Virus record (IMG/VR): IMGVR_UViG_3300032304_000977
Span: 1-64,000 of that record
DNA from: a virus
Lineage: Duplodnaviria; Heunggongvirae; Uroviricota; Caudoviricetes
DNA length: 64,000 nt
Direction: 5' to 3' (one strand)
Shown: positions 5,177 to 39,871 of the stretch, piece after piece
Layout of the letters: every line of letters starts with the position of its first letter
How positions within the stretch are numbered: position 1 is the first letter of the stretch
Notes under the pieces: model-generated
Told to the model about the DNA's origin: nothing
The model's input: the letters and a program-made list of their open reading frames with translations, nothing else
Databases searched by the model: none
Position numbers and translations under genes: made by a program

Positions 5177-5205
5177 ATTATACCCGATTATAGTTTAAAT
5201 GTCAA
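5177..5205 (-). promoter_or_regulatory. sigma70-type early promoter TTGACA-N17-TATAAT
   Basis: Minus strand: cTTGACAtttaaactataatcgggTATAAT. The -35 overlaps the stop of the 2OG oxygenase gene. Drives the W-rich and glycosyltransferase genes. Confidence 0.6.
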
Positions 5206-9217: not shown

Positions 9218-11728
9218 TTATCCGAAAAATTCATCAAGAGAATTCTTTTCTTCTAGAGTCCAACCGATTGCTTCTAGAATTGATTCTAATGGATGAACGA
9301 AAACCTTTTCAAATTGTTTTTCATAATCTACGTATTTATGTAAACCAAATTCCTTTGGTAATTCATTTGTAAAACTAATCACATCTTCGTGTATGATATT
9401 TGGCTCTTTCAAGTAGATAAATTTAATTCGGTCGCCCTCTCGGATCAAGGGATAATTGTTTGCCAAATTATGTTCTTTGAGAACGTGATTATACATCAAC
9501 GCACCACGAACATGTATCGGTGTAGATTTACGATAAATTGTTCCATTGTCAGAATATTCTTTGAGGTTATTTACACTTCTTGGAAATGCAGCGTCTTCTA
9601 CTGGCAACTCAAAGAATTCCTTTTTATAATCCAACACAAATTTACGTAAAGCAATAGAATCACCAGAAATAATTAAACTCATCGCCTCTTTTAGTTTACC
9701 ACGAACAACATGCGGTGTAGAAGATTTGATCATTTCAAGACCCATAATCTTCATCTTTGGTACTGAGTATTGAACACCCTCAGAGTTGTGTACATTCAAC
9801 ACGTATCGTTTCTTTGCAACAAAGATACCCTTATCCGCAATAGATTCACGCTTCATGATCATCTTTTGATCATAAGCATTTTGCCTTTGCGCCAACTCAA
9901 CATAGCATTCATCTATGTAGGATTGCATTTTATCTTCACAAAACGTATCAATAGTTTTAACAACTTTCTCTTTATCTTTTTGTTGATCTTTTGTGAAGAT
10001 TTTATCAACCAGTGGACCCATGTTAAGATAAACTGAATCGGTGTCGACAGCAATAACATAATCTTTGCTTTCGGTCTTTAACACTTTATTCATGTAGTCA
10101 TTTAATTTGTTGTGAATCCAACGAATTGATAACTGACCACTCAACGTAATACCCTCAGCCATTCTTCTATCATAGTAACGGAAATACTGATTAGCCAAAG
10201 CACCATAAGCAGAATTAAGAGCAATCTTCAAAGCCATCTGCAAATTATTCAGACGTGATATTTCATTTTTAAGATGCTTCTGGCTTTTATCATTTTCATA
10301 CTGTTGTTGAATGACAAGCATTTGTTTCTTTGCTTTGCTTCTATCAGCATACATCTTTTCCATCAACTCAGGTAAGAATCCTCTTATATCTTTTCGATAG
10401 CACCAGCCATTAGCACTACACGCAAGATTTAAATCTTTGAATCCACCTGTCTCTTCATGCTCTAAGAAATAACCAACACCACCAACATGTGTATAGTTGC
10501 TTACTAATGTTTCTGGTGAGATGTTATATTGCATAATCAAGTGAGGATACAAACTGTTGAGGTCGAATGAAACTACCCAATCGTGCATCCCAACAATTGG
10601 GTCTTTAACGTACGCACCCTCAATAACAGAATCTTTATCGTTGCTTGTTTTGTTTGGAATGACAATTTTCTTTGCTCTTAAATGGTTGTAGATAATTGTA
10701 TCCCACATACGCACCTGAGAGAAAACATCCTCATAGTTGACTTTAGCATTATATGCCATAACAATCGCCAACTCGATTAACTTCATTTTCTCTTCTAACT
10801 TAAATACCAGAACAGTATCATGAATGTTATATTCAACAAACTTCTTCCACCCATTTGTGTAGAATTCTTTAAACGAATCATATTCAGAGTGGTCTAGTTT
10901 GTTTTCGCCAAGTTCAACATAAGCAATGTGATCCAATCTGTATGATTCTTGCATTGAATATGTGAATTTTTTATACAGATCGATGTAATCTAAAATCGAA
11001 ACTCCTGCGATTTCATACATAATCTGCTCATTACCTTTAACGTGAATTCGTCTCTCGGTAATGTCGCCCCATGGAGATAATGTGTTAGCGTGTGATTCGC
11101 CAAGCACATTTGTTATCCGTCTGATTAGATATGGTATATCAAAGAAATTGATGTTCCAACCAGAAACGATATCTGGGCAGTTTTCTTTCCAAAATTTTAA
11201 AAAAGTCAACAACAGTTCTGTTTCATTTTGCACACAATGATAGTTTACATCTTTATTGGCAGTATACGGACTACGACCAAAGGTATGGATCTCATTGGTT
11301 TTAGAATCCATCAAAGTAATAAGAAGAATTTCCTCATCGGCTGTCTCAACATCAGGGAATCCACTATTAGTTGTGGTCTCGATATCAACGAAGAAACATT
11401 TAATCAAATCTTTATCAAATTTGATTTCTGATGGATAATTATCAGATATGTATTGAAACGCATATTGTGAGTTGCCGTAAACATCAAACCCATCAACACC
11501 TTTATATCTTTCTACAAATTCACGTGTGTCCTTCATGCTTCCTGGTTGAATCTCATAAAGAACCTGCCCATCCAATGTGCGAAAAATCTCACCAGAAGAA
11601 TTCTTCTTCTTAGATGAGACGTAAAGAGTTGGACGAAAATCTATTTTATCTTTAGTTGCTATTCCATTGCTATAACCACGAACACATAGTTTGTTTCCTG
11701 ATCGAAACACATTTGTGTAAAATTCCAT
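9218..11728 (-). CDS. 43: family B DNA polymerase (T4 gp43 homolog)
   Basis: 836 aa. Exo I FVDIETT, polymerase motifs DxxSLYPS-like (SFDLNSLYPHLI) and IAVDTDSVY. Size and position typical of gp43. Confidence 0.9.
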   Translation of the reverse strand: MEFYTNVFRSGNKLCVRGYSNGIATKDKIDFRPTLYVSSKKKNSSGEIFRTLDGQVLYEIQPGSMKDTREFVERYKGVDGFDVYGNSQYAFQYISDNYPSEIKFDKDLIKCFFVDIETTTNSGFPDVETADEEILLITLMDSKTNEIHTFGRSPYTANKDVNYHCVQNETELLLTFLKFWKENCPDIVSGWNINFFDIPYLIRRITNVLGESHANTLSPWGDITERRIHVKGNEQIMYEIAGVSILDYIDLYKKFTYSMQESYRLDHIAYVELGENKLDHSEYDSFKEFYTNGWKKFVEYNIHDTVLVFKLEEKMKLIELAIVMAYNAKVNYEDVFSQVRMWDTIIYNHLRAKKIVIPNKTSNDKDSVIEGAYVKDPIVGMHDWVVSFDLNSLYPHLIMQYNISPETLVSNYTHVGGVGYFLEHEETGGFKDLNLACSANGWCYRKDIRGFLPELMEKMYADRSKAKKQMLVIQQQYENDKSQKHLKNEISRLNNLQMALKIALNSAYGALANQYFRYYDRRMAEGITLSGQLSIRWIHNKLNDYMNKVLKTESKDYVIAVDTDSVYLNMGPLVDKIFTKDQQKDKEKVVKTIDTFCEDKMQSYIDECYVELAQRQNAYDQKMIMKRESIADKGIFVAKKRYVLNVHNSEGVQYSVPKMKIMGLEMIKSSTPHVVRGKLKEAMSLIISGDSIALRKFVLDYKKEFFELPVEDAAFPRSVNNLKEYSDNGTIYRKSTPIHVRGALMYNHVLKEHNLANNYPLIREGDRIKFIYLKEPNIIHEDVISFTNELPKEFGLHKYVDYEKQFEKVFVHPLESILEAIGWTLEEKNSLDEFFG

Positions 11729-16368: not shown

Positions 16369-17310
16369 TCACTTGAATTTACAATTAGCCATAATCTCGA
16401 TCAATGCTGCAACATTGTTGACCTCAATATCCGCAACGAATGCAGCCTTGTGTTGATAATCAGCCAAAGTAAGAATGAGTTGTGGGATGGAAGATTGCTC
16501 TAGATAGTCTGTGGCTGTGTCGTAAAGTCTTCGGAAAAGAACAGTAGTTTCAATGTCGTTATTTTTTGCAATCCATGCTCTGGCTTTCATGAAGTCTTTC
16601 TTCTTTAGGAATTCGATAAGTTCCTTCATCGATTCATCAGAAAGATTTGCAATAATTTGCGCATCGATACTACCACCTTTACTATAACGCTGAAGTTCGT
16701 TTAGAACTCTGCGGAAGTCAGGAAAGAAAGTCTCAACAACTTTTGCTACAACCTTTTGGTCGAATTCGATATTCTCAATTGAGAGAATGTCAACAACTCT
16801 ACGATAGAATGCTGCAGCAATTTTTGGTTTATCTTTACTTTCAATTCTAAATTCAACCACCGCACATCGTGAATGAAGTGGCTCAATTATTCTGTTTTTG
16901 AAGTTACAGGTAAGGATGAATCTGCAATTTGCTGAAAATTCTTCAATAAAAGCACGCAGGGCTGCTTGCGCATCTGGGGTGAGATAATCGGCTTCGTCGA
17001 GGATGACGACTTTCGGACCATCTTGGGTGATGCTAACAGACGAGGCAAAGGTTTTGATTTTTGTTCGTAATACATCTATTCCTCTTTCTTCTGAACCATT
17101 AATAAACATAAATTCAGCATTGACTTCATTACACAATGCTCTTGCTACTGTTGTTTTACCAACACCAGCGCTACCAGAAAAAATAAAATTTGGTAGTTGA
17201 CCCTCAGCAATATAATGCTTAAAGTTTTGTTTCAACTCTTCAGCAAGAATACAATCATCAATGGTTTTTGGGCGATACTTCTCGCACCATAAGAATTCTT
17301 CACGACTCAT
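16369..17310 (-). CDS. 44: clamp-loader AAA+ ATPase (gp44 homolog)
   Basis: 313 aa. Walker A SGSAGVGKTT, Walker B ILDEAD, RFC-box architecture. Position between gp45 and gp62. Confidence 0.85.
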   Translation of the reverse strand: MSREEFLWCEKYRPKTIDDCILAEELKQNFKHYIAEGQLPNFIFSGSAGVGKTTVARALCNEVNAEFMFINGSEERGIDVLRTKIKTFASSVSITQDGPKVVILDEADYLTPDAQAALRAFIEEFSANCRFILTCNFKNRIIEPLHSRCAVVEFRIESKDKPKIAAAFYRRVVDILSIENIEFDQKVVAKVVETFFPDFRRVLNELQRYSKGGSIDAQIIANLSDESMKELIEFLKKKDFMKARAWIAKNNDIETTVLFRRLYDTATDYLEQSSIPQLILTLADYQHKAAFVADIEVNNVAALIEIMANCKFK

Positions 17311-17330: not shown

Positions 17331-17996
17331 TTATTCAGCTGTTGAACCTGCCTCAACAGCAACATAGTAACAAAGTTCTGCGCTTGTGTTTTTGAAACGA
17401 CAAATCTTCATCTTAGCAATGGTAACATCGTATGCTCCTGGAAGCATTTTTAGGTTTTCTACTTTCAAATAAGCTGTAAACTTCTTGTCCGATTTACCTA
17501 GATCGATTTCGAACTTATTGCTCATTACATTTTTCACATCAACCACACGTGCAACAACTGTATTACCGTCGCCAACAACTGTGAGATCATTCACCTTTAA
17601 AATGCCAGCCGAGCGAATGATATGATCTAAATCTGATGCTGCTAATTTGAAAGTGATATTGCTTTCATCTTCTGGAAAAACAATAGATTTAGATGGCGCT
17701 TTTAGAATGTTTGCTTCTGCTGCTTTGTATTTAATAACATTCTTACCTTCCTTAACTTCAACAATGTCACCATTGAATGCGAAGTCGGGACTCTCGAACA
17801 ACGAAACAACACCCAAAAATTCATTGACGTCATAAATGCCAAAGTCTTGTGGGAATGTCTCAGAAACAGTTACTTCAGCGAAGACATTGTTTCCCTCATT
17901 TCGAGTTGACAATTTGTTTCCCTGTTTGATCAACAAATTCATGTTGATTGAAGCAAAGTTCTTAACGAGTGTTTGCGTTTCTTTTGATAATTTCAT
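17331..17996 (-). CDS. 45: sliding clamp (gp45 homolog)
   Basis: 221 aa. N-terminus MKLSKETQTLVKNFASIN matches the T4 gp45 start MKLSKDTTALLKNFATIN. Preceded by a consensus early promoter. Confidence 0.85.
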   Translation of the reverse strand: MKLSKETQTLVKNFASINMNLLIKQGNKLSTRNEGNNVFAEVTVSETFPQDFGIYDVNEFLGVVSLFESPDFAFNGDIVEVKEGKNVIKYKAAEANILKAPSKSIVFPEDESNITFKLAASDLDHIIRSAGILKVNDLTVVGDGNTVVARVVDVKNVMSNKFEIDLGKSDKKFTAYLKVENLKMLPGAYDVTIAKMKICRFKNTSAELCYYVAVEAGSTAE

Positions 17997-18056: not shown

Positions 18057-18857
18057 TTATTTTCCAATCATCAAACCAGTCATATTGCTTGGAACAACAA
18101 TCGTTTGAACCTTGCCATTCTTAATACCCTCAGAGATATTCAATGCAGCTTGTGCGTTCATAAAAGCAATGGAACTGGCAGAGTTATTTGCAAGAGCAGC
18201 CATGCGTTCAGCTTCTTTTCTGGCAGTCTGTACTTCAACTTCTTTCTGCTTATATTCGTTCTTGGCACGAACCAGAGCATTGGCAGATTCCACAACAGAG
18301 TCAGCTGGGACAATGTTACGAATCAATACCTGACCAATAACCAAACTACCATCTAACTTTTCTTCAGCCAAAGACTTTTGAATCTGCTCACGAATAGATT
18401 GTTCCATAACCTGACGATTATCAGCCATATCTAGAGCATCATACTTACGTGCTTCTTTGTAGATTGCATTACGAGTAGCCTGAACGATGTAGTTATACAT
18501 CAAGTAGATGTCGCCATTATGGCGAGCATGGAATGCTTGGCTTTTCTGGCTATACAACTCAGCAACTTGTGCTTGGTTAATGTTGTAGATAACTACAGCA
18601 TCAAAGTCTTTCATTGTACTGTTATCTTTGGCAACAGGAGTCATATCATCCAGTTTAACATTAACGTCTTTGACTGGGAAAGTCAAGACATCGCCAATCA
18701 AAACTTGATTGAACGATCCAGGAAGCAACTCACCCTGCTTAACCTGTTTATCAAAACCAACACGAACACCTACCTCGCCAGTTTCAATTCGAGTGCAACC
18801 TGTAGAAAGAACTGCTGCTGCCAAAACACCGATAGTAAAAACTTTTTTCATATTCAA
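18057..18857 (-). CDS. SPFH/band-7 (prohibitin/stomatin-like) lipoprotein
   Basis: 266 aa. Lipoprotein signal MNMKKVFTIGVLAAAVLSTGC, SPFH core with a coiled-coil tail (VRAKNEYKQKEVEVQTARKEAERMAA). Confidence 0.65.
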   Translation of the reverse strand: MNMKKVFTIGVLAAAVLSTGCTRIETGEVGVRVGFDKQVKQGELLPGSFNQVLIGDVLTFPVKDVNVKLDDMTPVAKDNSTMKDFDAVVIYNINQAQVAELYSQKSQAFHARHNGDIYLMYNYIVQATRNAIYKEARKYDALDMADNRQVMEQSIREQIQKSLAEEKLDGSLVIGQVLIRNIVPADSVVESANALVRAKNEYKQKEVEVQTARKEAERMAALANNSASSIAFMNAQAALNISEGIKNGKVQTIVVPSNMTGLMIGK

Positions 18858-19038: not shown

Positions 19039-19371
19039 TTATTCCTTAGAATACTTTACATCATGCTCATAAAGAAACATTAGACAACACATTGCATGAG
19101 CCAAATGATTCTTACCAGTTTCGGGATCATTTTGTTCTCCCTCTTTCCATGCCCAGAGGTGTCTTTGCATTGCATCAAAGTACCTTCGTTTAGAATCTGG
19201 AACATTTTTCCAATTATCTGGTTCGTATTTCTCGGCACCAAATGTTAGAATTTCTACAGTTGCTTTTAATGCAAGTGGTGGTAGTAAACCATATTGTAGT
19301 TTACCACCATCAAATTTTCTACCACCTGTTGTGGCATTTTGAGATTTTTTAATTTCTTCTTTAGTAGCCAT
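19039..19371 (-). CDS. conserved phage protein of unknown function (start trimmed to MATKEE)
   Basis: Track ORF 19039..19401. The first 10 codons overlap the hairpin at 19394-19417, so Met11 is the likelier start. Contains a KFDGGKLQYGLLPP block that I recognise only vaguely from other phage proteins. Confidence 0.4.
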   Translation of the reverse strand: MATKEEIKKSQNATTGGRKFDGGKLQYGLLPPLALKATVEILTFGAEKYEPDNWKNVPDSKRRYFDAMQRHLWAWKEGEQNDPETGKNHLAHAMCCLMFLYEHDVKYSKE

Positions 19372-19393
19372 TTTTCCTCCAGTAAAACGACAA

Positions 19394-19417
19394 ATGGACA
19401 CTCGGGAGAATGTCCAT
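19394..19417 (-). terminator. stem-loop candidate
   Basis: ATGGACA-N10-TGTCCAT. On the minus strand it is followed by a U-rich run. Overlaps the annotated start of ORF 19039..19401. Confidence 0.3.
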
Positions 19418-19434
19418 TAATTACTTACTAAAGA

Positions 19435-19722
19435 TTAGCGAGTAAATGCTTGTGCGCCAAGAATGTTTGCAGCAAGAGCAACCATACGCTTTGTTGGTGT
19501 GCCGATACGATACTTAACAACACGATCACCTGTGCTCAATGTAGTTGGGTTGCTGTATACACATACGCCATGCTCAGTGCGAAGAGCATGAATGGCACGA
19601 CTTGGGTTCTTAAGACCAAATGTGCCAGAGATTTGGCGTGCAGTTACTTCATTACCAGATTCCATATACGAAACCAATTTTGAGATTTTAGACATAGTAA
19701 GTCTCCATAAAAAATTCACCAA
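19435..19722 (-). CDS. hypothetical protein
   Basis: 95-aa ORF followed on the minus strand by a stem-loop. Confidence 0.35.
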   Translation of the reverse strand: MVNFLWRLTMSKISKLVSYMESGNEVTARQISGTFGLKNPSRAIHALRTEHGVCVYSNPTTLSTGDRVVKYRIGTPTKRMVALAANILGAQAFTR

Positions 19723-19779: not shown

Positions 19780-20175
19780 TCAGTTGCTAGACACAAGTTC
19801 TTGCTTGATCGTTTCTAGTTCTTCGTCGTAAGAATCGTCTTCAATAACAGATTCTTCAATAATTTTTTCGAATTTACTTTTCTCAGCAGCAGCTGTTTTT
19901 GTAACAACTTTAGCGGAAGCAGTATCAAGTGGGAGGGCGAACACGCCACGACCAACTTTATTTTTGGCAGTCAACCAGTTGGGGAAACCAACTTTCTCGC
20001 CACCAGCTGCACGCTTTTCATTGAGAGTCCAGTAAATAGACTCAAGTTCTTTACGAGAAACCTGTCCTGTTTTTGCAACAGTAGGGAATTCGCGAACAAC
20101 AGCATCAACGAAACGCTTTTGGGCTTTAGTAAGATCAGAATATTTCAACATAACAATTTCCTTTCGGGTTTTCAA
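19780..20175 (-). CDS. small protein sharing an N-terminal domain with the CobS-like ATPase
   Basis: 131 aa. The segment TGQVSRKELESIYWTLNEK...FPNWLTAKNKVGRGVFAL parallels SGTVSRQQIMSTMEALNTTKYPTWLMQNKVGRGLYAI in the downstream 391-aa ATPase. Preceded by a consensus promoter and followed by a hairpin terminator. Confidence 0.45.
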   Translation of the reverse strand: MKTRKEIVMLKYSDLTKAQKRFVDAVVREFPTVAKTGQVSRKELESIYWTLNEKRAAGGEKVGFPNWLTAKNKVGRGVFALPLDTASAKVVTKTAAAEKSKFEKIIEESVIEDDSYDEELETIKQELVSSN

Positions 20176-20187
20176 GTTTACAAGATA

Positions 20188-20216
20188 ATTATACTACGAT
20201 TTAACATTAATGTCAA
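20188..20216 (-). promoter_or_regulatory. sigma70-type early promoter TTGACA-N17-TATAAT
   Basis: Minus strand: tTTGACAttaatgttaaatcgtagTATAAT. Confidence 0.6.
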
Positions 20217-20223
20217 ACACCAT

Positions 20224-21372
20224 TTAGAACGGGATCTCACCATTCGTAGCCTGTTCGGTAACAGGGGCTACAGTGGCTGGTCCCACCTCAGCGTTTGGGT
20301 CTGCCGAAACTTTGTCAAACAGATCCAAAAACGCATCTTTCGTCAACGGATCGAAACGATTGATAGCAAGATTCACTGACTTACGCTTATCACGATAGAT
20401 CGAAAAGTTCTTAACGATATGAACTAAACGACGAGTCGTAATAACTTCATCAACGCCACCATCTTCGAAAGTACGACGAATAGCATCTGCCCATTTGACG
20501 AGTGTCGAAGCAAACTCACCATCAAGACAGTTAAATTTTTGCATAAGATTCGTAACGATTTTTGTTTCGATCTTAGCAGAAGGATAATCTTGTTCAAACA
20601 CAACAGCGAATCGCTCAAGGAATGCTTCATTCAAAACATTCGTACCAATATAGCGACCATCATCAGATCCCTTACCTTTGGTATTAGCAGTCGCAAGAAT
20701 ATTGAATCCTGCGGTAGGATACACAATCTCATTCTTTGCTTTGATATAATATGGTTTACCCTCAAGAATACCTTGGAGACACATCAACAAGTTGGCTGAG
20801 CCAGCGTCAATTTCGTCAACGAGAATTGGGATACCACGACGCATAGCAACAATCATTGGACCATCTTCAACCACCACGTTACCATCGATCAAAGTCTTAG
20901 ATGCAATCAATTTATCTTCGTCATCAGTGCTGTTCAAGTTCACACGGATGAGAGGGATTTTATGCTTCGCGCAAATCTGCTCAATCATAGTCGACTTACC
21001 ATTACCAGTCGGACCTGTTACATAGACAGGGTGAAACAGACGACTAGTGATAATCTTATCTAGATCAGCATGATTACCCCAAGCAACATATGCAGGGTCA
21101 ACAAGTGGAGCAGCAACTTCTGCTTCGGTTACGTAGACTGGTTTACGCACATCATTCTCGGGGTTTGTTTGTGGGACAGGTTTCATCACAGTATTTCCAC
21201 CAGCAATGGCATAAAGACCACGACCAACTTTGTTTTGCATTAGCCAAGTGGGATACTTGGTTGTATTTAGAGCTTCCATCGTGCTCATAATTTGCTGCCG
21301 ACTTACGGTTCCTGACGACTGAACATCGGGAAACAACTCGAACAGTTTGGTTTCGAACAATTCTTGATTCAT
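20224..21372 (-). CDS. cobS: CobS-like / MoxR-family AAA ATPase (start trimmed to MNQELF)
   Basis: Track ORF 20224..21399 begins with a TTG that lies inside the -10 hexamer. ATG at 21370-21372 has an AGGTGA RBS 4 nt upstream. Walker A GPTGNGKST, Walker B ILVDEIDAG, CobS/MoxR-like spacing. Confidence 0.75.
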   Translation of the reverse strand: MNQELFETKLFELFPDVQSSGTVSRQQIMSTMEALNTTKYPTWLMQNKVGRGLYAIAGGNTVMKPVPQTNPENDVRKPVYVTEAEVAAPLVDPAYVAWGNHADLDKIITSRLFHPVYVTGPTGNGKSTMIEQICAKHKIPLIRVNLNSTDDEDKLIASKTLIDGNVVVEDGPMIVAMRRGIPILVDEIDAGSANLLMCLQGILEGKPYYIKAKNEIVYPTAGFNILATANTKGKGSDDGRYIGTNVLNEAFLERFAVVFEQDYPSAKIETKIVTNLMQKFNCLDGEFASTLVKWADAIRRTFEDGGVDEVITTRRLVHIVKNFSIYRDKRKSVNLAINRFDPLTKDAFLDLFDKVSADPNAEVGPATVAPVTEQATNGEIPF

Positions 21373-21398
21373 AATCACCTTTCTCATAATATAGAACA

Positions 21399-21427
21399 AT
21401 TATACATTAAAATTGAATTAATGTCAA
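21399..21427 (-). promoter_or_regulatory. sigma70-type early promoter TTGACA-N17-TATAAT
   Basis: Minus strand: cTTGACAttaattcaattttaatgTATAAT. Upstream of the cobS-like gene. Confidence 0.6.
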
Positions 21428-21432
21428 GCATT

Positions 21433-21897
21433 TTACCAACTCGACTGATAGTAAAAATCACACTTATCAAAAGTAGGTTCTTCTAGGATTTTCTTGATGC
21501 GATCAGCAGTAAACTGAATATCGCCCATATACCAATCATCGTACTCAGTTGAACCAAAGAAGAAACCACTACGTGTCGGCAACAATTCAATCGCCACTTT
21601 CGGGTTTGCGAGAATTTGCTCACAAATTTTCATAAGGGATTCTAGTTGTTCGCGAGATACTTCATATTGATCGCAGTCGTCTTGACCATCTTGAACATTG
21701 TCGACAAACCACTGGTGAATAGCATTGGCTTTGCGCCAGTAAGCAGCACGGAAAATTACTTCCTGTGCACCATAATCGTTTTCTTCATCACCCTCGATGC
21801 CAAACAATTCATTGATAGAATTGATTCGCTCAGAATCTTTCTCATCAAAATATCGACTCATGTATTTCTTAGCCGACAGATACATATCTAAACCCAT
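21433..21897 (-). CDS. hypothetical protein
   Basis: 154-aa ORF in minus-strand array. Confidence 0.4.
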   Translation of the reverse strand: MGLDMYLSAKKYMSRYFDEKDSERINSINELFGIEGDEENDYGAQEVIFRAAYWRKANAIHQWFVDNVQDGQDDCDQYEVSREQLESLMKICEQILANPKVAIELLPTRSGFFFGSTEYDDWYMGDIQFTADRIKKILEEPTFDKCDFYYQSSW

Positions 21898-21908
21898 AAC
21901 AAATCCCC

Positions 21909-22283
21909 TTACGCTACTTTACGAAAATAACCATACGGTAAACCAAGCAGAAAACAAAGGTACTCATCATCACCATCGCTACCTTCTGCTTCGTGAACCC
22001 AGCGCAATGCTTGCTCACGACTTTTTGCGCCACTCATCATAAGATTAAGCATACGCATTTCAAAATCATGCGAAGCACGATCTTCGTCAATCTGACGCTG
22101 TTTGTCATTACACTCAATCACTGCCACACACTGCTCAAGTTCTTCCTTCAGCTGTTCAATGGACATAGATTCTATATTCATAAACCGAGGACGGATTCCA
22201 TGCGCATCTTTATACGCATCCCACAAAGAACACTCAAGCTGTTCTTTTTCTGTCATTTCTTCCCATGATTTTAACATTATCAA
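21909..22283 (-). CDS. hypothetical protein
   Basis: 124-aa ORF. Confidence 0.4.
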   Translation of the reverse strand: MIMLKSWEEMTEKEQLECSLWDAYKDAHGIRPRFMNIESMSIEQLKEELEQCVAVIECNDKQRQIDEDRASHDFEMRMLNLMMSGAKSREQALRWVHEAEGSDGDDEYLCFLLGLPYGYFRKVA

Positions 22284-22478
22284 TTATCCCTTTTTAAAAG
22301 CAGCAACCGCACGAGGAAAACCATTCGCGAAACCTGAATTACCAGACACGAAACCACGAGAATTTTTGCAAGTCATTTTTGACTTTGGGGTTTTCGTTGG
22401 TTTGTATACAGTAACAGTAACATTATGTACTGGGTCAATGTAAGTGGTCAAAACATTTCGTGGTTTCTTCGTAGTCAT
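22284..22478 (-). CDS. small basic protein
   Basis: 64 aa. Preceded by AAGGAA RBS and the consensus promoter at 22508-22536. Confidence 0.35.
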   Translation of the reverse strand: MTTKKPRNVLTTYIDPVHNVTVTVYKPTKTPKSKMTCKNSRGFVSGNSGFANGFPRAVAAFKKG

Positions 22479-22483
22479 TTAAG

Positions 22484-22537
22484 TTCCTTTTCAATCATCA
22501 TAAGATAATTATACGTCCAAACCGAATTAATGTCAAG
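22484..22537. repeat. 54-bp exact direct repeat, copy A (promoter plus leader)
   Basis: ttccttttcaatcatcataagataattatacgtccaaaccgaattaatgtcaag is identical to 34962-35015. Confidence 0.8.
22508..22536 (-). promoter_or_regulatory. sigma70-type early promoter TTGACA-N17-TATAAT
   Basis: Minus strand: cTTGACAttaattcggtttggacgTATAAT. Lies within the 54-bp exact repeat. Confidence 0.6.
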
Positions 22538-22551
22538 TCCCCCGAATAATA

Positions 22552-22571
22552 ACCCTACAGACTGTAAGGGT
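22552..22571. repeat. ACCCTAC-N5-GTAGGGT hairpin family, copy 2 (imperfect)
   Basis: accctacAGACTgtaagggt, next to the promoter at 22508-22536 and the 24-bp palindrome. Confidence 0.5.
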
Positions 22572-22572
22572 A

Positions 22573-22596
22573 TTAAGTTAGTGGTCACTTACTTAA
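22573..22596. repeat. 24-bp palindrome TTAAGTTAGTGGTCACTtACTTAA (one mismatch)
   Basis: Near-perfect inverted repeat immediately 3' of hairpin copy 2. Confidence 0.6.
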
Positions 22597-22660
22597 AAAA
22601 GGGTCGTCCAATGGGCTTCACAGACCACATATGGACGACCATAAGGTCACCTGACTCGAC

Positions 22661-24970
22661 TCAGGCGACAACCCCTACAAACCGATTCAAAAGAACACGA
22701 CTTGTTTTTTTAGCGGAAAGATGTTTACCGAACTGTTTTGCAATCGCTGCAGCAGTCATTTTTGTCATATCCTCAGTCAACTCTTGCTCATCAACCTTGT
22801 GGTCGGATTTGAGCAAGAACAATTCGTCATGACCTTCTACATCCAATGCAGCAAAACCTTCCTTCAACATATCGCGACGAACATTGTATACAACAACATC
22901 ATTTGTTGGCAGCAAATATGTATTCATCGCATAGTTGATATCACGAGAACGCTTATCGGTAACGTGGAATCCAATCGTCCCACAGTTATATCGATCTTTG
23001 ATCAGTTTCGTAAGAAGATTACCCCACTGAGTATGAGGTTCGATTTGATAAACTTTCTTTGTTATAGGACAACGCAAGAAACGGACATAACGAACTCTGG
23101 TATTATTTTCATACGTATGTGTACTGTTGATGTTACTGCTAGTATATCCATATCGTTCAGCATAAGGATCTCCTGTTGCTACATTTTTTGTCATACAAGA
23201 AGTAACTCTACCCCCATCACCATCTGTCAATTTGATCAATGTAAACTTCTCAATCTGATTGCCAAGAATAAACTTCTCAGAATAGTCATAGAGAAATGCC
23301 AATGATTCATTAAGTGGCGTTCCACCAAGTTCATAATTATCTGCGACAAACCCAAGAGACATACCAAACACTGTTTTACACATCTTATTGAATTCAGTCG
23401 TAGTCATGCGATTGCTGAACAACTCAATCATAGAAAAATCTGGTCGAATTTCTAACACATATTGCGAATCGCCAATTAATTTGTGTATATCATTTTTGTA
23501 GTTTTGATAACGTAGCTGCTCACGATATTCTTGTGACCATGATGGGTCAACAACTTCTACCGATTTCTTCATTTCTTTGTTATCACTAAAAGCGAACACT
23601 TGGAATGGAATCTTGATTCGATGACAAAACATTACCAGCGAAATAAGTTGCTTTACAGTATCGTTCAGATATTCTGACATAGATCCTGACCAATCAAGAA
23701 CAAATATCATACCATGTTTCTTACCATCTTTGGTAATGTTGATGGACTTGAACAAGTCTTCACGAATTTTATATTGAGACAATTTACGCACATCAAGAAC
23801 ACCTGACTTAGCAATCTGAACACGTTTGTAATCAGTTGCTGCTTTGCGCATTTCAAATTCTTTTACAAGATATGATACTACACGTTGTGTTTCCTGCATA
23901 AACTTATCATAGTCAATGTTTTGTTGAGCAGACAGTTTCATAATGTGGTTGATACGATGTTCATAACCACCATCAATAGTCTTCTTAATAACTGCATCAA
24001 CAACACCAACATGATCATTTAAAACTTGTTTGTATGGAACAATAATATCATCGATAAATGGACCAAATCGAACCATGTCGATATATTGATATCGAGTGTT
24101 TACGTCAGCAGATTCTGCCAATTTTTCTTCAAATGATTTGACAGTAACAGGATCCTTAACAGTTTCTTCTGTTTTGATGTTATCGGAATCCGCACCTGCG
24201 CCACGACCAGTGATATCATCACGATCTTCTTTTGGTTCAGTAGTATCCTCGCCAGATTCTTCATACTCATGGCGATTTTCTTCATCATCAAAATCAAAAT
24301 CGTCATCTAACGCATCAAGGTCATCATAATCATCATCTATTTGATTATGTTCTTCCAGCATTTTCTTATATTCTGCATCACCCTCTAGTGATTTGAGAAT
24401 ATCTTGTTTTTGTTTCTTAGTGAAGTCATATACTTTGCGAGCAAGATTGATAACATCATCAACTGTCTCAAGACGTGCGACTTGATCAACGAGATACTTT
24501 TCGGCTGGTGTAAACTTCACACCACATTCAAACCCTGCCTTGTAGTACAGATTAATTCTGTCAATCAACTGCAACGAAGCAAGTTCGTGTTTCTTGACAC
24601 CAAAGAAATCTCGCTCATTGAGTTGTTTATAACCCTTCGCGAATGCGGATCGAAGTCCAGGATACTTGCGCTTCATTAATTTCTCAATACGAGCATCCTC
24701 AAGAATATTACAGAAGCCATGTGGAATACCTTTACGTTCTTCGGTTGCTTTTGCTTTCTCGAAAATAGTAAAATCGGTATAAAGAGCATGAGCAACTTCG
24801 TGCGCTTTGAGCATCTCCTCAATCTCGGGAGTCATGTTTTGCCATTGCGGTAAAGTCAACACACGATTGACAACATCAAATGATGCAGTCGTAACAGGTG
24901 CTCGCTGGATCAACAGGTTTTCCTGAGCCAATAGGCGAGTAGTGATGTCGTTGGTTTGATGTTTATCCAT
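22661..24970 (-). CDS. von Willebrand factor A (vWA) domain protein, CobT-like
   Basis: 769 aa. MIDAS motif VLDWSGSMSEY in the C-terminal half; long poly-acidic linker (DDDYDDLDALDDDFDFDDEEN...) as in CobT; N-terminal HEVAH (HExxH). Located 3 genes downstream of the CobS-like ATPase. Confidence 0.7.
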   Translation of the reverse strand: MDKHQTNDITTRLLAQENLLIQRAPVTTASFDVVNRVLTLPQWQNMTPEIEEMLKAHEVAHALYTDFTIFEKAKATEERKGIPHGFCNILEDARIEKLMKRKYPGLRSAFAKGYKQLNERDFFGVKKHELASLQLIDRINLYYKAGFECGVKFTPAEKYLVDQVARLETVDDVINLARKVYDFTKKQKQDILKSLEGDAEYKKMLEEHNQIDDDYDDLDALDDDFDFDDEENRHEYEESGEDTTEPKEDRDDITGRGAGADSDNIKTEETVKDPVTVKSFEEKLAESADVNTRYQYIDMVRFGPFIDDIIVPYKQVLNDHVGVVDAVIKKTIDGGYEHRINHIMKLSAQQNIDYDKFMQETQRVVSYLVKEFEMRKAATDYKRVQIAKSGVLDVRKLSQYKIREDLFKSINITKDGKKHGMIFVLDWSGSMSEYLNDTVKQLISLVMFCHRIKIPFQVFAFSDNKEMKKSVEVVDPSWSQEYREQLRYQNYKNDIHKLIGDSQYVLEIRPDFSMIELFSNRMTTTEFNKMCKTVFGMSLGFVADNYELGGTPLNESLAFLYDYSEKFILGNQIEKFTLIKLTDGDGGRVTSCMTKNVATGDPYAERYGYTSSNINSTHTYENNTRVRYVRFLRCPITKKVYQIEPHTQWGNLLTKLIKDRYNCGTIGFHVTDKRSRDINYAMNTYLLPTNDVVVYNVRRDMLKEGFAALDVEGHDELFLLKSDHKVDEQELTEDMTKMTAAAIAKQFGKHLSAKKTSRVLLNRFVGVVA

Positions 24971-25002: not shown

Positions 25003-25031
25003 ATTATACACCGAAATGAAATAAATGTCAA
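25003..25031 (-). promoter_or_regulatory. sigma70-type early promoter TTGACA-N17-TATAAT
   Basis: Minus strand: cTTGACAtttatttcatttcggtgTATAAT. Upstream of the vWA gene. Confidence 0.6.
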
Positions 25032-25251: not shown

Positions 25252-25992
25252 TTACACCACGAATCCTGTAGTATCTTTCTTAGCACGTCCCTTCGCCTTC
25301 AATCCAACGATAACATTTTTTTTGTCAAGAAAACGCAAATCGGTTTCATCGCCGTTGATAACAGGACGACCAAAATAGGTTTCAGGGAGTGAGCGGAAAA
25401 CAGCAGCCACATTCATACCAGCTGACGCAGCCAGACGAGTATCCATGTCATTACCATCTGCTTTAGAAAATGTAAGATGATAATTCTTTAGATGAGCAAC
25501 CTTACGATTGCGCATTTTTGTGTAGTCATAGAACTGCACTTCAGGAAACATCTGGAAAATGTTACGACCCTCTAGGATCTCATACTTTTCCCATGCAATA
25601 TCGCTAGTACCATTGAGACGGAAGCAAGGAATCAATCCTTTCTTTTCGGCTTGCTTGATTGCGAGTGTGATGTCTTTGAGCAGTTTACTCATAAACTCAG
25701 TACGATTTTCGTAAAATAATTTTGTTTTGCGAATACGTGCTTGCTGAATCACGTTGGTGGTTTCGCCTTTCTTGAACATACCACCACGACCAGCTGTGTT
25801 CAAACATGCAGCTGTGCAACCAGCAGTTCTTTTTGGACAAGTTTCGTAGCCAGATAAATTGGCAGGGGCGAGATGAAGGATGAAGGACATGTATCCTTTC
25901 TTTTCGCCTTTGAGTAACTTTGGGTTTCCAGTAGAAAGTAAATTCATATAAACCTCAAACCAATTTGCTGATTGAAACGTCGTATGACACAC
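25252..25992 (-). CDS. Cys-cluster protein (possible metal/Fe-S binding)
   Basis: 246 aa with YETCPKRTAGCTAACLNTAGRGG (C-x6-C-x3-C). Family not identifiable by eye. Confidence 0.4.
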   Translation of the reverse strand: MCHTTFQSANWFEVYMNLLSTGNPKLLKGEKKGYMSFILHLAPANLSGYETCPKRTAGCTAACLNTAGRGGMFKKGETTNVIQQARIRKTKLFYENRTEFMSKLLKDITLAIKQAEKKGLIPCFRLNGTSDIAWEKYEILEGRNIFQMFPEVQFYDYTKMRNRKVAHLKNYHLTFSKADGNDMDTRLAASAGMNVAAVFRSLPETYFGRPVINGDETDLRFLDKKNVIVGLKAKGRAKKDTTGFVV

Positions 25993-27278: not shown

Positions 27279-27782
27279 TTAAAGCTCCTCATTAGGAAAG
27301 GCATCTGTTGGTTCAAACACATATTCTCTCTTCGGTGTATAAGGGAAAACAATTGGCACAAAGGACGCAGATCCAGTGTAGTATGATTTGAAAGGTTTAC
27401 CATCCTCATCACTCATATACCAGTTCCAAAAAATTTTACCTTCTAGGTCATAGGGCTGACCATTGAATCGATCAGATTGTTTGAACACATGGCTGCAACG
27501 ATTGTTTTGAAACACACCATCACTCACTTCATTCCACTCAGAGTCTTCTCCTGTGAGTGGAATGATTGGTTCAAAGGAAGCCAACTTCTTGAACAAGTCG
27601 ATAGTATAAGGTGCAGTCGAACCCGAGTGACCCTTTTTCGAAAACATATTAATCAATTTTAGAACATGCTGACAAATCGCACCCTGCATCTCATCGCAGT
27701 ATGTACCATCCTCATTCAACCAACCAGCTACTTTAAATTCTCTCAATGCGTGTTTTTTTAAATTGCTCATGCTGTAATCCAA
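27279..27782 (-). CDS. hypothetical protein
   Basis: 167-aa ORF. Confidence 0.4.
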   Translation of the reverse strand: MDYSMSNLKKHALREFKVAGWLNEDGTYCDEMQGAICQHVLKLINMFSKKGHSGSTAPYTIDLFKKLASFEPIIPLTGEDSEWNEVSDGVFQNNRCSHVFKQSDRFNGQPYDLEGKIFWNWYMSDEDGKPFKSYYTGSASFVPIVFPYTPKREYVFEPTDAFPNEEL

Positions 27783-34961: not shown

Positions 34962-35015
34962 TTCCTTTTCAATCATCATAAGATAATTATACGTCCAAAC
35001 CGAATTAATGTCAAG
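34962..35015. repeat. 54-bp exact direct repeat, copy B
   Basis: Identical to 22484-22537. Contains the RBS, -10, spacer and -35 of the promoter. Confidence 0.8.
34986..35014 (-). promoter_or_regulatory. sigma70-type early promoter TTGACA-N17-TATAAT
   Basis: Minus strand: cTTGACAttaattcggtttggacgTATAAT. Identical to the copy at 22508-22536 (part of the 54-bp repeat). Confidence 0.6.
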
Positions 35016-35352
35016 CGAATAACCCTACACGCTGTAGGGTCTTTTTGAACGTGTTCAGGGCTGGCTGCAGGTCGTTGATCAGCTGGGTTTCGTAAGCATG
35101 AGCATCTTTTTTGCCACGCACTACTGTGATCACCTGCGTATCCCAGTTTTCGTAGGTACGGATGGCTTCTGACAGTGCCCAGTCTTTGTCTTGACGATGA
35201 GCACGATATTGATGCTGTTGCCAGCGAGTCGCAAGGGTTTTAAGTTGGGCACGTCCACGCATCACTGTTACACCAATGTAGCTGTCGCCTGTGTCAAGAC
35301 AGGTCAGCTGGTATATCAGGTGGTTACGATCAGTTCGTTTTTTCCTATTCAT
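35011..35352 (-). CDS. GIY-YIG family nuclease (homing-endonuclease-like, catalytic domain only)
   Basis: Track ORF 35011..35388 starts with TTG inside the -35 box. Met13 at 35350-35352 is likelier. Motif HLIYQLTCLDTGDSYIGVT...R...RWQQH...YETQLIN fits GIY-YIG (GIY...YIG...R...H...E...N). Its stop codon lies inside the next promoter's -35. Confidence 0.55.
   Translation of the reverse strand: MNRKKRTDRNHLIYQLTCLDTGDSYIGVTVMRGRAQLKTLATRWQQHQYRAHRQDKDWALSEAIRTYENWDTQVITVVRGKKDAHAYETQLINDLQPALNTFKKTLQRVGLFA
35021..35041. repeat. ACCCTAC-N5-GTAGGGT hairpin family, copy 5
   Basis: aaccctacACGCTgtagggtc adjacent to the promoter at 34986-35014. Lies within the last codons of the GIY-YIG ORF. Confidence 0.6.
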
Positions 35353-36183: not shown

Positions 36184-36477
36184 TCATCTGTCATATGATT
36201 CCAAAACTTTTAGCAACTTAACATCTTCATTCGGAGCAAGATAAACTGTTGCGCTGATTCTGCGTTCAAATGTTATTGGGTCTAGTGGTCTTGACACAAT
36301 ATCCACCAATCTACGATCAATTATATTATCAACAATTGCCGTAACAAGTTCTTGACGATATTTGCGCTTATCATCTTCAGTCAAATCCACAAAATTCTCT
36401 TTAGGAATTGTTATATACGCTTCTACCTTTTTTCCACCAATGGCATAGGATTTATAATCAAGTTTAATATTGTTCAT
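36184..36477 (-). CDS. hypothetical protein
   Basis: 97-aa ORF, 4-nt overlap with gp46. Confidence 0.4.
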   Translation of the reverse strand: MNNIKLDYKSYAIGGKKVEAYITIPKENFVDLTEDDKRKYRQELVTAIVDNIIDRRLVDIVSRPLDPITFERRISATVYLAPNEDVKLLKVLESYDR

Positions 36478-38186
36478 ACGATCACCGAAAAGTCATTTTG
36501 TTTCTGGAATTTAATCACACTGCGGAATTTATCAAACAGCTGATCGCCCTTGTGACTAATAACAAACACATTAGTATTCTCACCAAACGCATCCATCAAA
36601 GTCAGAAAATAGTCTGTACCTGCAACATCCAGACTGCTATCGAAAATCTCATCAAGAATAAGAAGATTGGTATTAACACTGTTCTTCATCTTAGCAATCT
36701 GACGCCAAGTAAAAAGAATAGCCAAGTCAATGCGCATCTTTTCACCCTCAGAGAAACTTGCATATGTGAATGCATCTCTGTGACGAGATTTGATTATCTC
36801 ATTGAATACCTCGTCTAACTCGAAGTGTACAAAGAACTCCATAGATTGCAAATATTTGTTAATCAACTTGTTCATAGTCGGCAAATATTCACGAATGATT
36901 TTAGTTTTAATACCAGTGTCACGTAAAAGATTTGATGCTACTTCTTGATAGTATCTATCTGTTGATAGTGTATTTTTTCTATCAAGTAAGGTGATTGCTT
37001 CTTGAGCCATCTCTTTCAGTTTGACCTTTTCCTCAGTAACATTACTTTTATCTTCTTGAGTTTCGGTAATCTCTCGCATCAACTGTTGATTCATAGTGTT
37101 CAAAAACGTAATTGACTGATTAGCAGTTGAAACTTCGATATTCTTATCAGATATTAAATTTTGTACTGTATTGATCTGTTCTAATCTTTCCTCTAGTTTC
37201 CCTAGTGCTGCTGTAATATCCTCAATATGCTTCATATTTTCTTCATAATCACGTTGTATTTCCTCAATAATTCTCGTTTTATGCTCATGTGGGATGCCTT
37301 GATCACATTGAGGACAAACCTCATTACCATTAAAGAATTCAACTGTTTCTGTTAGATCTGCAATCTTATTGGTTTTCTTATTGGCAATTGTTTTCGCCTT
37401 CTCAATTTGGGATAGGATTTCTGTCCTGTCTGCGATGCTTTGTTTAAGACTATTAATGTCTTGAGTGAGAACCTCAATAGTTTCATTCGTGGCTTTGATA
37501 GATACATCATTATTGTCAATCTTTGCCTGTAAAGAAGATACAACCTCTTTTCTGTTGTCGAGCAATATTTTAATCGTCTTTTGCTGATTATCAACCCTCT
37601 CACGTGCCAATGTGAGTTTAGATTCAGTAGCTGCGATTTCATCCTTTGTCTCCTGCATTTTCTGTTTCAGAATAGTATTCATTGTGCTGAATACACGGAT
37701 ATCTAGAATATCCTCAATAACCTCACGTCTTGTTGCTGATGGTAATTGCATAAAAGGAACGAATGATGCGCTACCAAGGATAACAACTTGAGTAAATGTT
37801 TTGTAATTTAACTTTAGAATTTGTTGCTCAAGAACCTTTTGATAATCTTTTGCTGCAGCATCCTGATTCATTAACACATTATCTTGATAAATCTCGAACA
37901 CATTTGGTTTTATACCACGAACAATTCTGTATTCTGTTTTTCCAATATCAAATTCAATCTCAACAACACAATTCTTTTGGTTGATGCTGTTAATTAATTG
38001 CGGTTTGTTGATGTTTCTAAATGGTTTCCCAAAAAGAGAAAAGCACAATGCATCTAGAATTGTGCTTTTGCCATCACCATTTTTACCAACAATAAGAGTT
38101 GTTGTACTTCTGTTTAGAATTACTTTGTTCTCTGCATTACCTGTTGATAAGAAATTTTTCCAAGAAATCGTTTTAAATGTAATCAT
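36474..38186 (-). CDS. 46: recombination endonuclease subunit gp46 (SbcC/Rad50-like)
   Basis: 570 aa. N-terminal Walker A LIVGKNGDGKSTILDA, long coiled-coil middle, CxxC zinc hook (CPQCDQ), C-terminal Walker B LLILDEIFD. Confidence 0.85.
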   Translation of the reverse strand: MITFKTISWKNFLSTGNAENKVILNRSTTTLIVGKNGDGKSTILDALCFSLFGKPFRNINKPQLINSINQKNCVVEIEFDIGKTEYRIVRGIKPNVFEIYQDNVLMNQDAAAKDYQKVLEQQILKLNYKTFTQVVILGSASFVPFMQLPSATRREVIEDILDIRVFSTMNTILKQKMQETKDEIAATESKLTLARERVDNQQKTIKILLDNRKEVVSSLQAKIDNNDVSIKATNETIEVLTQDINSLKQSIADRTEILSQIEKAKTIANKKTNKIADLTETVEFFNGNEVCPQCDQGIPHEHKTRIIEEIQRDYEENMKHIEDITAALGKLEERLEQINTVQNLISDKNIEVSTANQSITFLNTMNQQLMREITETQEDKSNVTEEKVKLKEMAQEAITLLDRKNTLSTDRYYQEVASNLLRDTGIKTKIIREYLPTMNKLINKYLQSMEFFVHFELDEVFNEIIKSRHRDAFTYASFSEGEKMRIDLAILFTWRQIAKMKNSVNTNLLILDEIFDSSLDVAGTDYFLTLMDAFGENTNVFVISHKGDQLFDKFRSVIKFQKQNDFSVIV

Positions 38187-38189
38187 AGA

Positions 38190-38804
38190 TTAGTGTGAGG
38201 GATTGTTTAAGTCAAAAGTGTCAAGATCAAATAATGAAATAACCTTTACCTCTTTTGGTAAATATATGTCAGAATATAGTCGATGATCATGAACACCCTT
38301 GTTTGATTTATTAACAATTACTACTGCTAAATTTGCAGATGGTAGTTTCAACGCATTGCTGGCAATATTATGAGCATGAGCAAGAGATGTTGAAGAGTTA
38401 CACAAATCATCAACAAGTACATAAGGTATTTTGTTATACGCCATACCTTCATGCCAATTCATTAATCCGTATCCTTTTCGTTCTTTTCTAACAACGAAAG
38501 AACCAAGTCTTATGCCATGTGTTTTTGCTACAAGTGGCATCGCTGCAGCAATTGGTGTTCCAGCAGTTTCAGCACCACAGATTTGAAAGTTGTAGTCACC
38601 AAGTTCTTGATGAATTCTATACAACATCATCTCGCTTACATATTGTAAAAAATCTGCATTGAACAAACCATTCCTAAGATAAAACATCCAGGTATATTTT
38701 GTTCCTGGAAGTTTTCCTGGCATATTACCTTTAATTATACAATGTTTTTGTATAAAATGTCTCACAACTTCTTCACATTGTTTGTATTGCTCTTCGGTTA
38801 TCAT
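38190..38804 (-). CDS. phosphoribosyltransferase-domain protein
   Basis: 204 aa. PRPP-binding-like acidic loop VLVDDLCNSSTSL and upstream ICGAETAGTPIAAAM as in type I PRTases. Inserted between gp47 and gp46. Confidence 0.45.
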   Translation of the reverse strand: MITEEQYKQCEEVVRHFIQKHCIIKGNMPGKLPGTKYTWMFYLRNGLFNADFLQYVSEMMLYRIHQELGDYNFQICGAETAGTPIAAAMPLVAKTHGIRLGSFVVRKERKGYGLMNWHEGMAYNKIPYVLVDDLCNSSTSLAHAHNIASNALKLPSANLAVVIVNKSNKGVHDHRLYSDIYLPKEVKVISLFDLDTFDLNNPSH

Positions 38805-39871
38805 ACACTCTCCTGATTCACTGCCTCAGTATATAATACTCTCATCAATGTTTTTACTCTATCTTTATCTGCTTCAGTTTCAATTGAATCGATATAGTTA
38901 CTTAATACTGACATTGTATCTTCAAGGTTTATGTTTTCGTCAATTTCACCCTCATCAAGCGAAGACATATCCTCAATAATTTTAATCTCATGACATCCTT
39001 TTTTGTAGAGTTTATTCGTAAACTCATCATACTTTGCGATGTCAGTTTTGTTCACAACAACCAACTTAACGAATTTGTCTGTTAAGTCCAGGGAATCAAC
39101 ATCTCTAGTTTGGGTTTCGGCTCTATCATCGTACTCGATTCTTTCATACATAGTATATGGATTTGGGATGAAGTCAAGTTTTCTCGTGTCAACATCAAAC
39201 AAGTGAAATCCTCTGGGATCATTATAATCCTGCCATGTGAGTTCGTATGGGTTTCCCAAATAAAATATATGACCATCATCTGAGCGATGATGATAATGCC
39301 CACTGAACACCATATCAAATTTCTCGAATGTCTTTTTATCCAGTCCTTCATGAGATTCCATTCCTCTATACATTGCGAAACCAGCAACCTCTAAGTGCCC
39401 CATACATATTGTGGCACTTGTGTTTTGAATTTCTGTTAATGATTGTGTGTAATTATCTGCACATATCCATGGTAGCATCAATATATCAGCACTAGTATTA
39501 CCATAATCTAAATGTATCGTCTGAGGTGTGTCAATGACATTGATGTTGTCGTATTCTCTTAGAAGCAAATCTGGAGAATTTACATCATTAGTGTTTTTGT
39601 AGTAGGTGTCGTGGTTGCCAGCAAGCATGTGAACTTGAATGTTTCTTTGCGCTAGTTTATCAAAGAACATTTCTTTGGTTCTTTGTAGGGCATAGAAGTT
39701 TACATACTTGCGTCTATCAAAGGTATCACCAAGAACAAGTACGGTATCAATGCCAGCAGAATCAATAGTAGGAAAGAAAGTATTTTCATAAAATTTCTCA
39801 AAAAAATCTAAGAACAATATGCTGTCATTACGAGCACCAAAATGTTGGTCGGTTATAATTGCTACTCTCAT
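38801..39871 (-). CDS. 47: recombination endonuclease subunit gp47 (SbcD/Mre11-like)
   Basis: 356 aa. Calcineurin-like phosphoesterase motifs ITDQHFG, LGDTFD, GNHD, GHLE. Adjacent to gp46. Confidence 0.85.
   Translation of the reverse strand: MRVAIITDQHFGARNDSILFLDFFEKFYENTFFPTIDSAGIDTVLVLGDTFDRRKYVNFYALQRTKEMFFDKLAQRNIQVHMLAGNHDTYYKNTNDVNSPDLLLREYDNINVIDTPQTIHLDYGNTSADILMLPWICADNYTQSLTEIQNTSATICMGHLEVAGFAMYRGMESHEGLDKKTFEKFDMVFSGHYHHRSDDGHIFYLGNPYELTWQDYNDPRGFHLFDVDTRKLDFIPNPYTMYERIEYDDRAETQTRDVDSLDLTDKFVKLVVVNKTDIAKYDEFTNKLYKKGCHEIKIIEDMSSLDEGEIDENINLEDTMSVLSNYIDSIETEADKDRVKTLMRVLYTEAVNQESV

Follow-up and report, generated by a model that had tools for sequence, protein, structure and literature searches.

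We analyzed a 64,000-nucleotide stretch of DNA from an uncultured virus of the Caudoviricetes (positions 1 to 64,000 of IMG/VR record IMGVR_UViG_3300032304_000977; hereafter, the window) and studied a module of CobS- and CobT-like genes encoded in it. The module consists of a gene for a 769-residue CobT-like protein with a vWA domain (positions 22661–24970), which we call the adaptor, a gene for a 382-residue CobS-like AAA+ ATPase of the MoxR class (20224–21372), and a gene for a 123-residue protein (19780–20151) that is a free paralogue of the N-terminal domain of the ATPase. All of them are on the minus strand, within a minus-strand run of genes of a T4-like myovirus, and the order on that strand is gp47, gp46, adaptor, ATPase, gp45, gp44, gp43. 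As transcription runs right to left, the adaptor gene is upstream of the ATPase gene; the original prediction, made from the sequence alone, had placed it downstream, although it was right about the three small genes lying between the two.

The ATPase gene starts with an ATG preceded by the ribosome-binding site aaaggtga. The encoded protein contains the Walker A motif GPTGNGKST (residues 120–128, positions 20989–21015) and the Walker B motif ILVDEIDAG (residues 183–191, positions 20800–20826) that had been noticed in the first reading of the sequence, and these motifs as well as the sensor residues are nearly invariant across 58 related ATPases. Matches above the cut-off were found in Pfam to AAA_5 (PF07728, E = 9.3e-13) and to the CbbQ_C lid (PF08406, 5.5e-5), and residues 62–364 matched the PHROG family phrog_249, annotated as "porphyrin biosynthesis" (2.4e-99). 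Midasin (9e-36) and CobS (3.4e-27) were matched among the PDB sequences, together with CbbQ and NorQ, and the defence models of PADLOC gave P-loop noise alone and no other match. The proposed CobS/MoxR-type assignment was borne out by these searches: judged by its sequence, the protein is an AAA+ ATPase of the MoxR/CbbQ/NorQ/CobS class with an intact AAA_5 core. Its N-terminal domain of approximately 60 residues is encoded at positions 21187–21372 and may be winged-helix-like.

The adaptor combines three elements that had been predicted for it, an N-terminal HEVAH motif (residues 57–61, positions 24788–24802), a 70-residue acidic linker (residues 206–275, positions 24146–24355; 44% Asp/Glu), and the MIDAS sequence DWSGSMSEY (residues 426–434, positions 23669–23695), which includes the core motif DWSGS. 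The N-terminal domain also contains the motif EDARIE (24683–24700), a helical middle domain is located between the acidic linker and the vWA domain, and the latter continues with the motifs GGT (23306–23326) and TDGD (23210–23230). We found the vWA fold, with a complete MIDAS (DxSxS, T, D), to be well supported, and a fold search with the adaptor returned vWA domains throughout among the matches listed. The HExxH, ExxRIE, and DxSxS motifs were retained in 30 of 30 and 53 of 53 relatives in two alignments, and in both sets H57, E58, and H61 as well as the downstream E91/E96 were invariant. The protein ends in a conserved tail, KKTSRVLLNRFVGVVA (residues 754–769, positions 22664–22711), in which K755, T756, S757, R758, L760, L761, N762, F764, and A769 are invariant; in the structure model the tail is preceded by a low-confidence linker, and it could be a docking or pore-insertion peptide.

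Direct database matches to the adaptor were few. Residues 8–769 matched the PHROG family phrog_459 (1.8e-162), while direct scans of Pfam and NCBIfam with the whole protein and with its N-terminal 189 residues gave no match. A Pfam scan of 30 relatives found VWA_CoxE, VWA, and CobT only, all of them below the threshold (the best for CobT at 0.14), and neither the N-terminal region of the adaptor nor its relatives matched any peptidase family. In the PDB, a sequence search with the protein produced acidic-linker noise only and a profile search nothing at E up to 1. In an exhaustive search with representatives, the best 150 matches were all close full-length members of the family (E < 1e-150), so that this search gave no bridge to the true CobT. 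Going by its HExxH motif alone, the N-terminal domain is a putative zinc peptidase.

The third gene encodes a free copy of the N-terminal domain of the ATPase. Its open reading frame (ORF) had been proposed to encode 131 residues from a TTG at 20175, but the true start is most likely the ATG at 20151, giving 123 residues, as the ribosome-binding site aaggaa, the called gene, and all homologues agree on it. The domain itself, with the motifs GFPNWL and NKVGRGVFA, occupies positions 19924–20151 and is followed by a Lys/Ala-rich linker and an acidic C-terminal tail (19783–19923). The claimed similarity to the ATPase N terminus proved significant in alignment: BLASTP gave 33% identity over 76 residues (E = 4e-9), and hhalign matched the free protein to the ATPase domain over 56 columns with a probability of 98.3% (E = 1.5e-14). 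Profile searches were reciprocal, with ATPase N termini making up 71 of the 80 non-self matches to the profile of the free protein (best E = 1e-6) and the profile of the ATPase domain reaching the free proteins at E values down to 1.6e-9. The AlphaFold2 model of the shared domain is confident, with a predicted local distance difference test score of 84–91 over residues 1–70. The free protein had no match in Pfam, PHROG, NCBIfam, or PADLOC, and its homologues form 54 clusters, every one of them 112–162 residues long.

To place these genes in related genomes, we surveyed 80 related viral contigs and counted features over 79 loci, or over the 44 loci with enough flanking sequence. The free paralogue was found directly downstream of the ATPase gene in 66 of the 79 loci, with the two ORFs overlapping by 3–19 nt in about 20 of them, and it was missing in more distant relatives (those at 47–48% identity and a few at 58%). 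The adaptor, the ATPase, and the free paralogue of its N-terminal domain form a conserved three-gene block, which is a modest new point of the analysis.

The module is preceded and interspersed by promoters of a sigma-70, T4 early-like type. Sites matching TTGACA-N17-TATAAT at all 12 positions are located on the minus strand upstream of the adaptor gene (25003–25031), ahead of the three small genes (22508–22536), ahead of the ATPase gene (21399–21427), and ahead of the free paralogue (20188–20216). The whole window contains 15 such perfect sites, all of them on the minus strand, against an expectation of 0.04, and many of the 15 share the extended form TTGACATTAATTC...GTATAAT. Three of the four sites at the module had been named originally and were recovered as perfect, but the one at 20188–20216 serves the small gene and not the ATPase gene, and the site at 22508–22536 had been missed.

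The pairing of the adaptor and the ATPase is widespread among phages. In a tblastn search, the adaptor matched 464 phage records, mostly of cyanomyoviruses (365 Synechococcus phages, 61 records named "Cyanophage," 24 Prochlorococcus phages, 3 Pelagibacter phages, and others), and the query coverage was at least 80% in 385 records. In S-PM2 and P-SSM2, the counterpart of the adaptor is annotated as "peptidase" (T4-GC146) and precedes cobS (T4-GC150) directly or by a few genes, and the synteny is that of the window, from gp46/gp47 through the peptidase gene and cobS to gp45/gp44. Among the related metagenomic loci, the adaptor gene was upstream of the ATPase gene in all 44 with enough flank, usually at a distance of 30–140 nt. 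The gene for the vWA partner belongs to the core set of the T4-like cyanophages, and the perception of T4-like phages as having cobS alone stems from annotation habit, not biology. The original prediction had regarded the partner as unusual and had suggested surveying its presence or absence; this claim of novelty fails, as the pair is already a known core feature of the phage group. In the literature, the pair already goes by the name cobST. Zaragoza-Solas et al. 2020 (PMC7029224) listed cobS and cobT among the genes of pelagimyophages and cyanomyophages, Iyer et al. 2021 (PMC7824862) described for T4-like jumbo phages a MoxR-vWA pair of the chaperone type that includes a metallopeptidase domain at the N terminus, and the phage pair has been interpreted as a cobaltochelatase (PMC8651126).

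On sequence grounds, the pair in the window is a new divergent member of this known phage "cobS + peptidase" (cobST) family. It shares with the cyanophage pairs the protein families, the gene order, the position between gp46/gp47 and gp45/gp44, and the HExxH and MIDAS motifs, at an identity to the S-PM2 and P-SSM2 proteins of about 45% for the ATPase and about 30% for the large protein. It differs in that the clade of the window encodes the free paralogue right after the ATPase; in the narrower subclade of the window, three small genes additionally separate the adaptor gene from the ATPase gene. The cyanophage CobS proteins have an N-terminal extension of about 75 residues without detectable homology to the N-terminal domain in the window clade: hidden Markov model searches found none, and hhalign gave an E of 0.011 and a probability of 3.7%. 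A MAFFT alignment of the two regions hints at a possible likeness, with a similar helix and an "RG-aromatic" hairpin.

We compared the module with the true cobaltochelatase subunits and found it, as far as profiles and alignments can tell, to be homologous to CobS and CobT yet not orthologous with them. The likeness includes the AAA_5 ATPase with a CbbQ_C lid, the adjacency of the genes, and the layout of the partner as an N-terminal domain, an acidic linker, and a vWA/MIDAS domain. The ATPase matched the CobS model TIGR01650 with 103.6 bits (1.1e-29) and did not reach its equivalog cut-off of 558.55. The Pfam scan did not find CobS_N (PF12556) in the ATPase, whereas Rhizobium CobS has it (1.5e-16), and true CobS is in turn without the 60-residue N-terminal domain. 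Similarly, Pfam CobT (PF06213) and CobT_C (PF11775) had no match in the large proteins of the window, S-PM2, or P-SSM2, while the true Rhizobium CobT matched them at 2.4e-93 and 6e-111. The order of the genes is cobS and then cobT in the true pair and the reverse in the phages. Finally, the true CobT examined, that of Rhizobium, which is encoded beside a true CobS, does not have the HExxH motif: in the alignment, its GLGDSMALRL stands in the place of KAHEVAHALY in the phage protein.

The connection to CobT was established indirectly, using a profile of 22 "CobT-related" proteins from plasmids. This profile matched the phage family both in the N-terminal domain (E = 7.9e-15), with HEVgH aligned on HEVAH and NilEDvRIE on NILEDARIE, and in the vWA domain (E = 6e-16), and it matched the true Rhizobium CobT at 5.5e-33; a direct comparison of the phage profile with that single Rhizobium protein was not significant (E = 0.14). 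The predicted CobT likeness of the 769-residue protein thus stands, and the chain through the CobT-related proteins makes it a distant member of the CobT superfamily and not an orthologue.

The CobT-related genes themselves were found in 1092 plasmid records, mostly of non-mobilizable plasmids of about 100–130 kb from Klebsiella, E. coli, Yersinia, and Acinetobacter. The HExxH motif is present in 17 of the 22 CobT-related proteins, as it is in the proteins of S-PM2 and P-SSM2 and of the Klebsiella and E. coli plasmids. Three plasmids were inspected (L006, L168, and L169, from Acinetobacter, Klebsiella, and E. coli, respectively), and in each a cobT-like gene is followed by an ATPase gene, the order and architecture being those of the phage pair. 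The plasmid CobT-related proteins, unlike the phage protein, match Pfam CobT and CobT_C; the Acinetobacter "CobT," for example, does so at 1.4e-9 and 4.6e-43, and it is encoded directly upstream of a MoxR ATPase. In the Klebsiella and E. coli plasmids, dnaE comes directly after the ATPase gene; in the Acinetobacter plasmid, it lies about 3.8 kb further downstream, past three hypothetical genes. The cobT-like, ATPase, and dnaE genes adjoin an integrase and a regulator, and the plasmids, of about 80–130 kb, are non-mobilizable in some cases and mobilizable in others. The plasmid ATPases have N-terminal extensions too, but of types other than that in the window: the one from Acinetobacter is weakly Ros/MucR-like (1.6e-4, below the cut-off), and the enterobacterial ones are about 170 residues long and without a Pfam match.

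We interpret the locus, with a confidence of roughly 0.6, as an early-transcribed cobST-family module of an uncultured T4-like myovirus for which protein remodelling is likelier as a function than the insertion of cobalt into corrin. By analogy with characterized systems, the module is most likely a client-remodelling and possibly client-cleaving machine. The ATPase would form a hexameric ring, as its solved relatives do, and the vWA adaptor would dock on it; the MIDAS of the adaptor (DxSxS...T...D) would then hold a client protein by one of its acidic residues while the ring, hydrolysing ATP, pulls on the client or remodels it, following the models for NorQD, CbbQO, and midasin. Given the invariant zincin-type HExxH and the downstream Glu, the client may also be cleaved, perhaps by the N-terminal domain of the adaptor, for which the motif is the indication. 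The 123-residue protein, to go by its paralogy and position, is probably a third subunit or else a competitor or regulator for the ligand of the fused N-terminal domain. The comparison has its differences, as the adaptors of NorQ–NorD, CbbQ–CbbO, and midasin (Rea1/MDN1) are without an HExxH domain and serve other clients, and in none of these systems does a domain of the ATPase also occur as a free paralogous protein. More likely than cobalt insertion is a general protein-remodelling function that the module would perform on mobile elements, where it is expressed together with replication genes.

The alternative that survives best, although we consider it unlikely, is an auxiliary metabolic cobaltochelatase, in which the phage CobS- and CobT-like proteins would work with a CobN or a ChlH/BchH-like subunit of the host and raise the synthesis of cobalamin or pseudocobalamin, which might serve, for instance, nucleotide metabolism that depends on B12 in the infected cell. 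Several points in its favour weigh against the remodelling function that we prefer. The homology to CobS is real, in the PDB as well as in TIGR01650, and so is that of the adaptor to true CobT by way of the CobT-related proteins (6e-16 and then 5.5e-33), with which it shares the architecture of N-terminal domain, acidic linker, and vWA domain; a chelatase function with the CobN of a host could follow from such homology. It is also the published interpretation of the phage pair (PMC8651126; PMC7029224). The original prediction had allowed for either a chelatase-like or a chaperone-like system, and the first of these options has become the weaker one with the failed tests for CobS and CobT membership: both proteins fall below the curated family thresholds, and the ATPase does not have CobS_N. 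Moreover, the invariant HExxH, not found in the true CobT examined, has no part in chelation. The family is carried by Pelagibacter phages and by E. coli, Klebsiella, and Yersinia plasmids, whose hosts are not known to have the aerobic CobN pathway, and neither CobN nor another cob gene was seen in those parts of the window that were examined.

A more specific and rather speculative proposal, to which we give a somewhat lower chance than to the chelatase, is that the "CobST" proteins of phages and plasmids form a replication-linked remodeller and protease unrelated to cobalamin. The N-terminal domain of the ATPase, perhaps winged-helix-like in the window and weakly Ros/MucR-like in an Acinetobacter plasmid, would here direct the complex to its site of action, either DNA or a protein of the replisome or nucleoid. 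A client would then be gripped by the MIDAS and cut by the HExxH domain; the free paralogue, with its acidic tail, would compete for the target of the N-terminal domain as a regulator or decoy.

Still less probable, in our view, is a virion-assembly chaperone and protease that folds or assembles structural proteins and processes them. Such a function has been proposed for T4-like jumbo phages on the analogy of a MoxR-vWA system needed for tail development in the Acidianus two-tailed virus (PMC7824862), and a MoxR-vWA architecture with a conserved HExxH would suit a chaperone combined with a processing enzyme. The promoters, however, are of the early sigma-70 consensus type on all units of the module, the genes lie among gp43, gp44, gp45, gp46, and gp47 and outside the structural gene cluster (43.7–64 kb of the window), and the plasmid relatives are found near dnaE and an integrase/regulator region. 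The last alternative, that the likeness over about 60 residues arose by chance or from low complexity, with the small ORF being no real gene, could appeal to the shortness of the similarity, its 33% identity, and the weak single profile matches to some ATPases (E of 0.01–1), but it is already contradicted and has next to no chance of being correct, since the reciprocal profile searches retrieve each other's family almost exclusively, and the hhalign result, the ribosome-binding site and promoter of its own, the homologue clusters of conserved length, the fixed place after the ATPase gene, and the confident structure model all speak against it.

The stretch that separates the adaptor gene from the ATPase gene (21433–22478, minus strand) contains three small genes, which stand outside the conserved module. 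They encode proteins of 64, 124, and 154 residues with matches to phrog_21968 and phrog_7971, families without an annotated function. They are confined to the subclade of the window (loci L008 and L009), where the gap between the two module genes is about 1.06 kb; in other related loci it is 30–140 nt, and 618 nt in one group. The genes have no homology to those at the same position in P-SSM2. Being present only in the closest relatives of the window, they look like a recent insertion, with a promoter–terminator cassette at the front and the early promoter of the ATPase gene behind. In this cassette (22508–22569), a terminator-like hairpin at 22553–22569 is followed by the promoter at 22508–22536. 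The whole unit of hairpin (CCCTACAG..TGTAGGG), promoter, and leader up to the ribosome-binding site is found at 22485–22569 and again at 34965–35047, both on the minus strand, with 52 identical bases. By its sequence, it resembles the PeSL promoter–terminator cassettes, to which modular shuffling in T4-type phages has been attributed (PMC2839356, PMC4122927).

The surroundings of the module are those of a T4-like genome. On the minus strand, the window encodes the gp43 DNA polymerase (9218–11728), the gp44 clamp loader (16369–17310), the gp45 clamp (17331–17996), gp46 (36474–38186), and gp47 (38801–39871). Genes for a UvsW-type helicase, the portal, the tail sheath, and the major capsid protein are present in the window as well. 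The last of these proteins shares 62–65% identity with its counterparts in Methylophilales phage Melnitz, Pelagibacter phage Mosig, and cyanomyoviruses, and by this protein the closest cultured relatives are phages of Methylophilales and Pelagibacter. A megablast search of the region against 50,697 phage records matched only a 100-nt stretch of cobS at 83% identity, so that the virus has no close sequenced relative at the DNA level among them; the 769-residue protein is found with an identical sequence on metagenomic contigs of 150–162 kb. Neighbours of the module on the minus strand encode an SPFH/Band-7 protein (18057–18857; PF01145, 1.2e-18) that also matches the phrog_200 "lipoprotein" family, a protein with a dATP/dGTP diphosphohydrolase N-terminal domain (19039–19401; PF18909, 5.6e-35), a 95-residue phrog_4973 protein (19435–19722), and a GP88-family protein (25252–25992; PF17338, 2.1e-42).

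Two further genes of the minus strand deserve mention. About 2.3 kb upstream of the module, a gene at 27279–27782 encodes a protein of 167 residues that matches Pfam Tad3 (PF25185) at 6.6e-36 and with 123 bits against a cut-off of 27. Tad3 is an inhibitor of type I Thoeris, and by its family membership the gene is likely an anti-defence gene. For the protein of 438 residues encoded at 5202–6518, phrog_24024 was matched at 5e-149; there was also a weak match, to a queuine tRNA-ribosyltransferase-like family (1e-8), and this hints at a modification of DNA or RNA bases.

The new part of the window is a divergent family member together with a conserved third gene, and the comparative data sharpen the case that the phage "cobST" is not a true cobaltochelatase. 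The free paralogue provides a small and concrete handle on what the N-terminal domain of the ATPase binds, and the relatives on enterobacterial plasmids make the choice between remodelling and chelation accessible to genetics. Among the auxiliary metabolic genes of marine phages, cobS ranks with those cited most often, and its presence is regularly taken as evidence that viruses boost the synthesis of vitamin B12. If the module is indeed a remodelling machine and not a chelatase, many ecological tallies of auxiliary metabolic genes would be over-interpreted.

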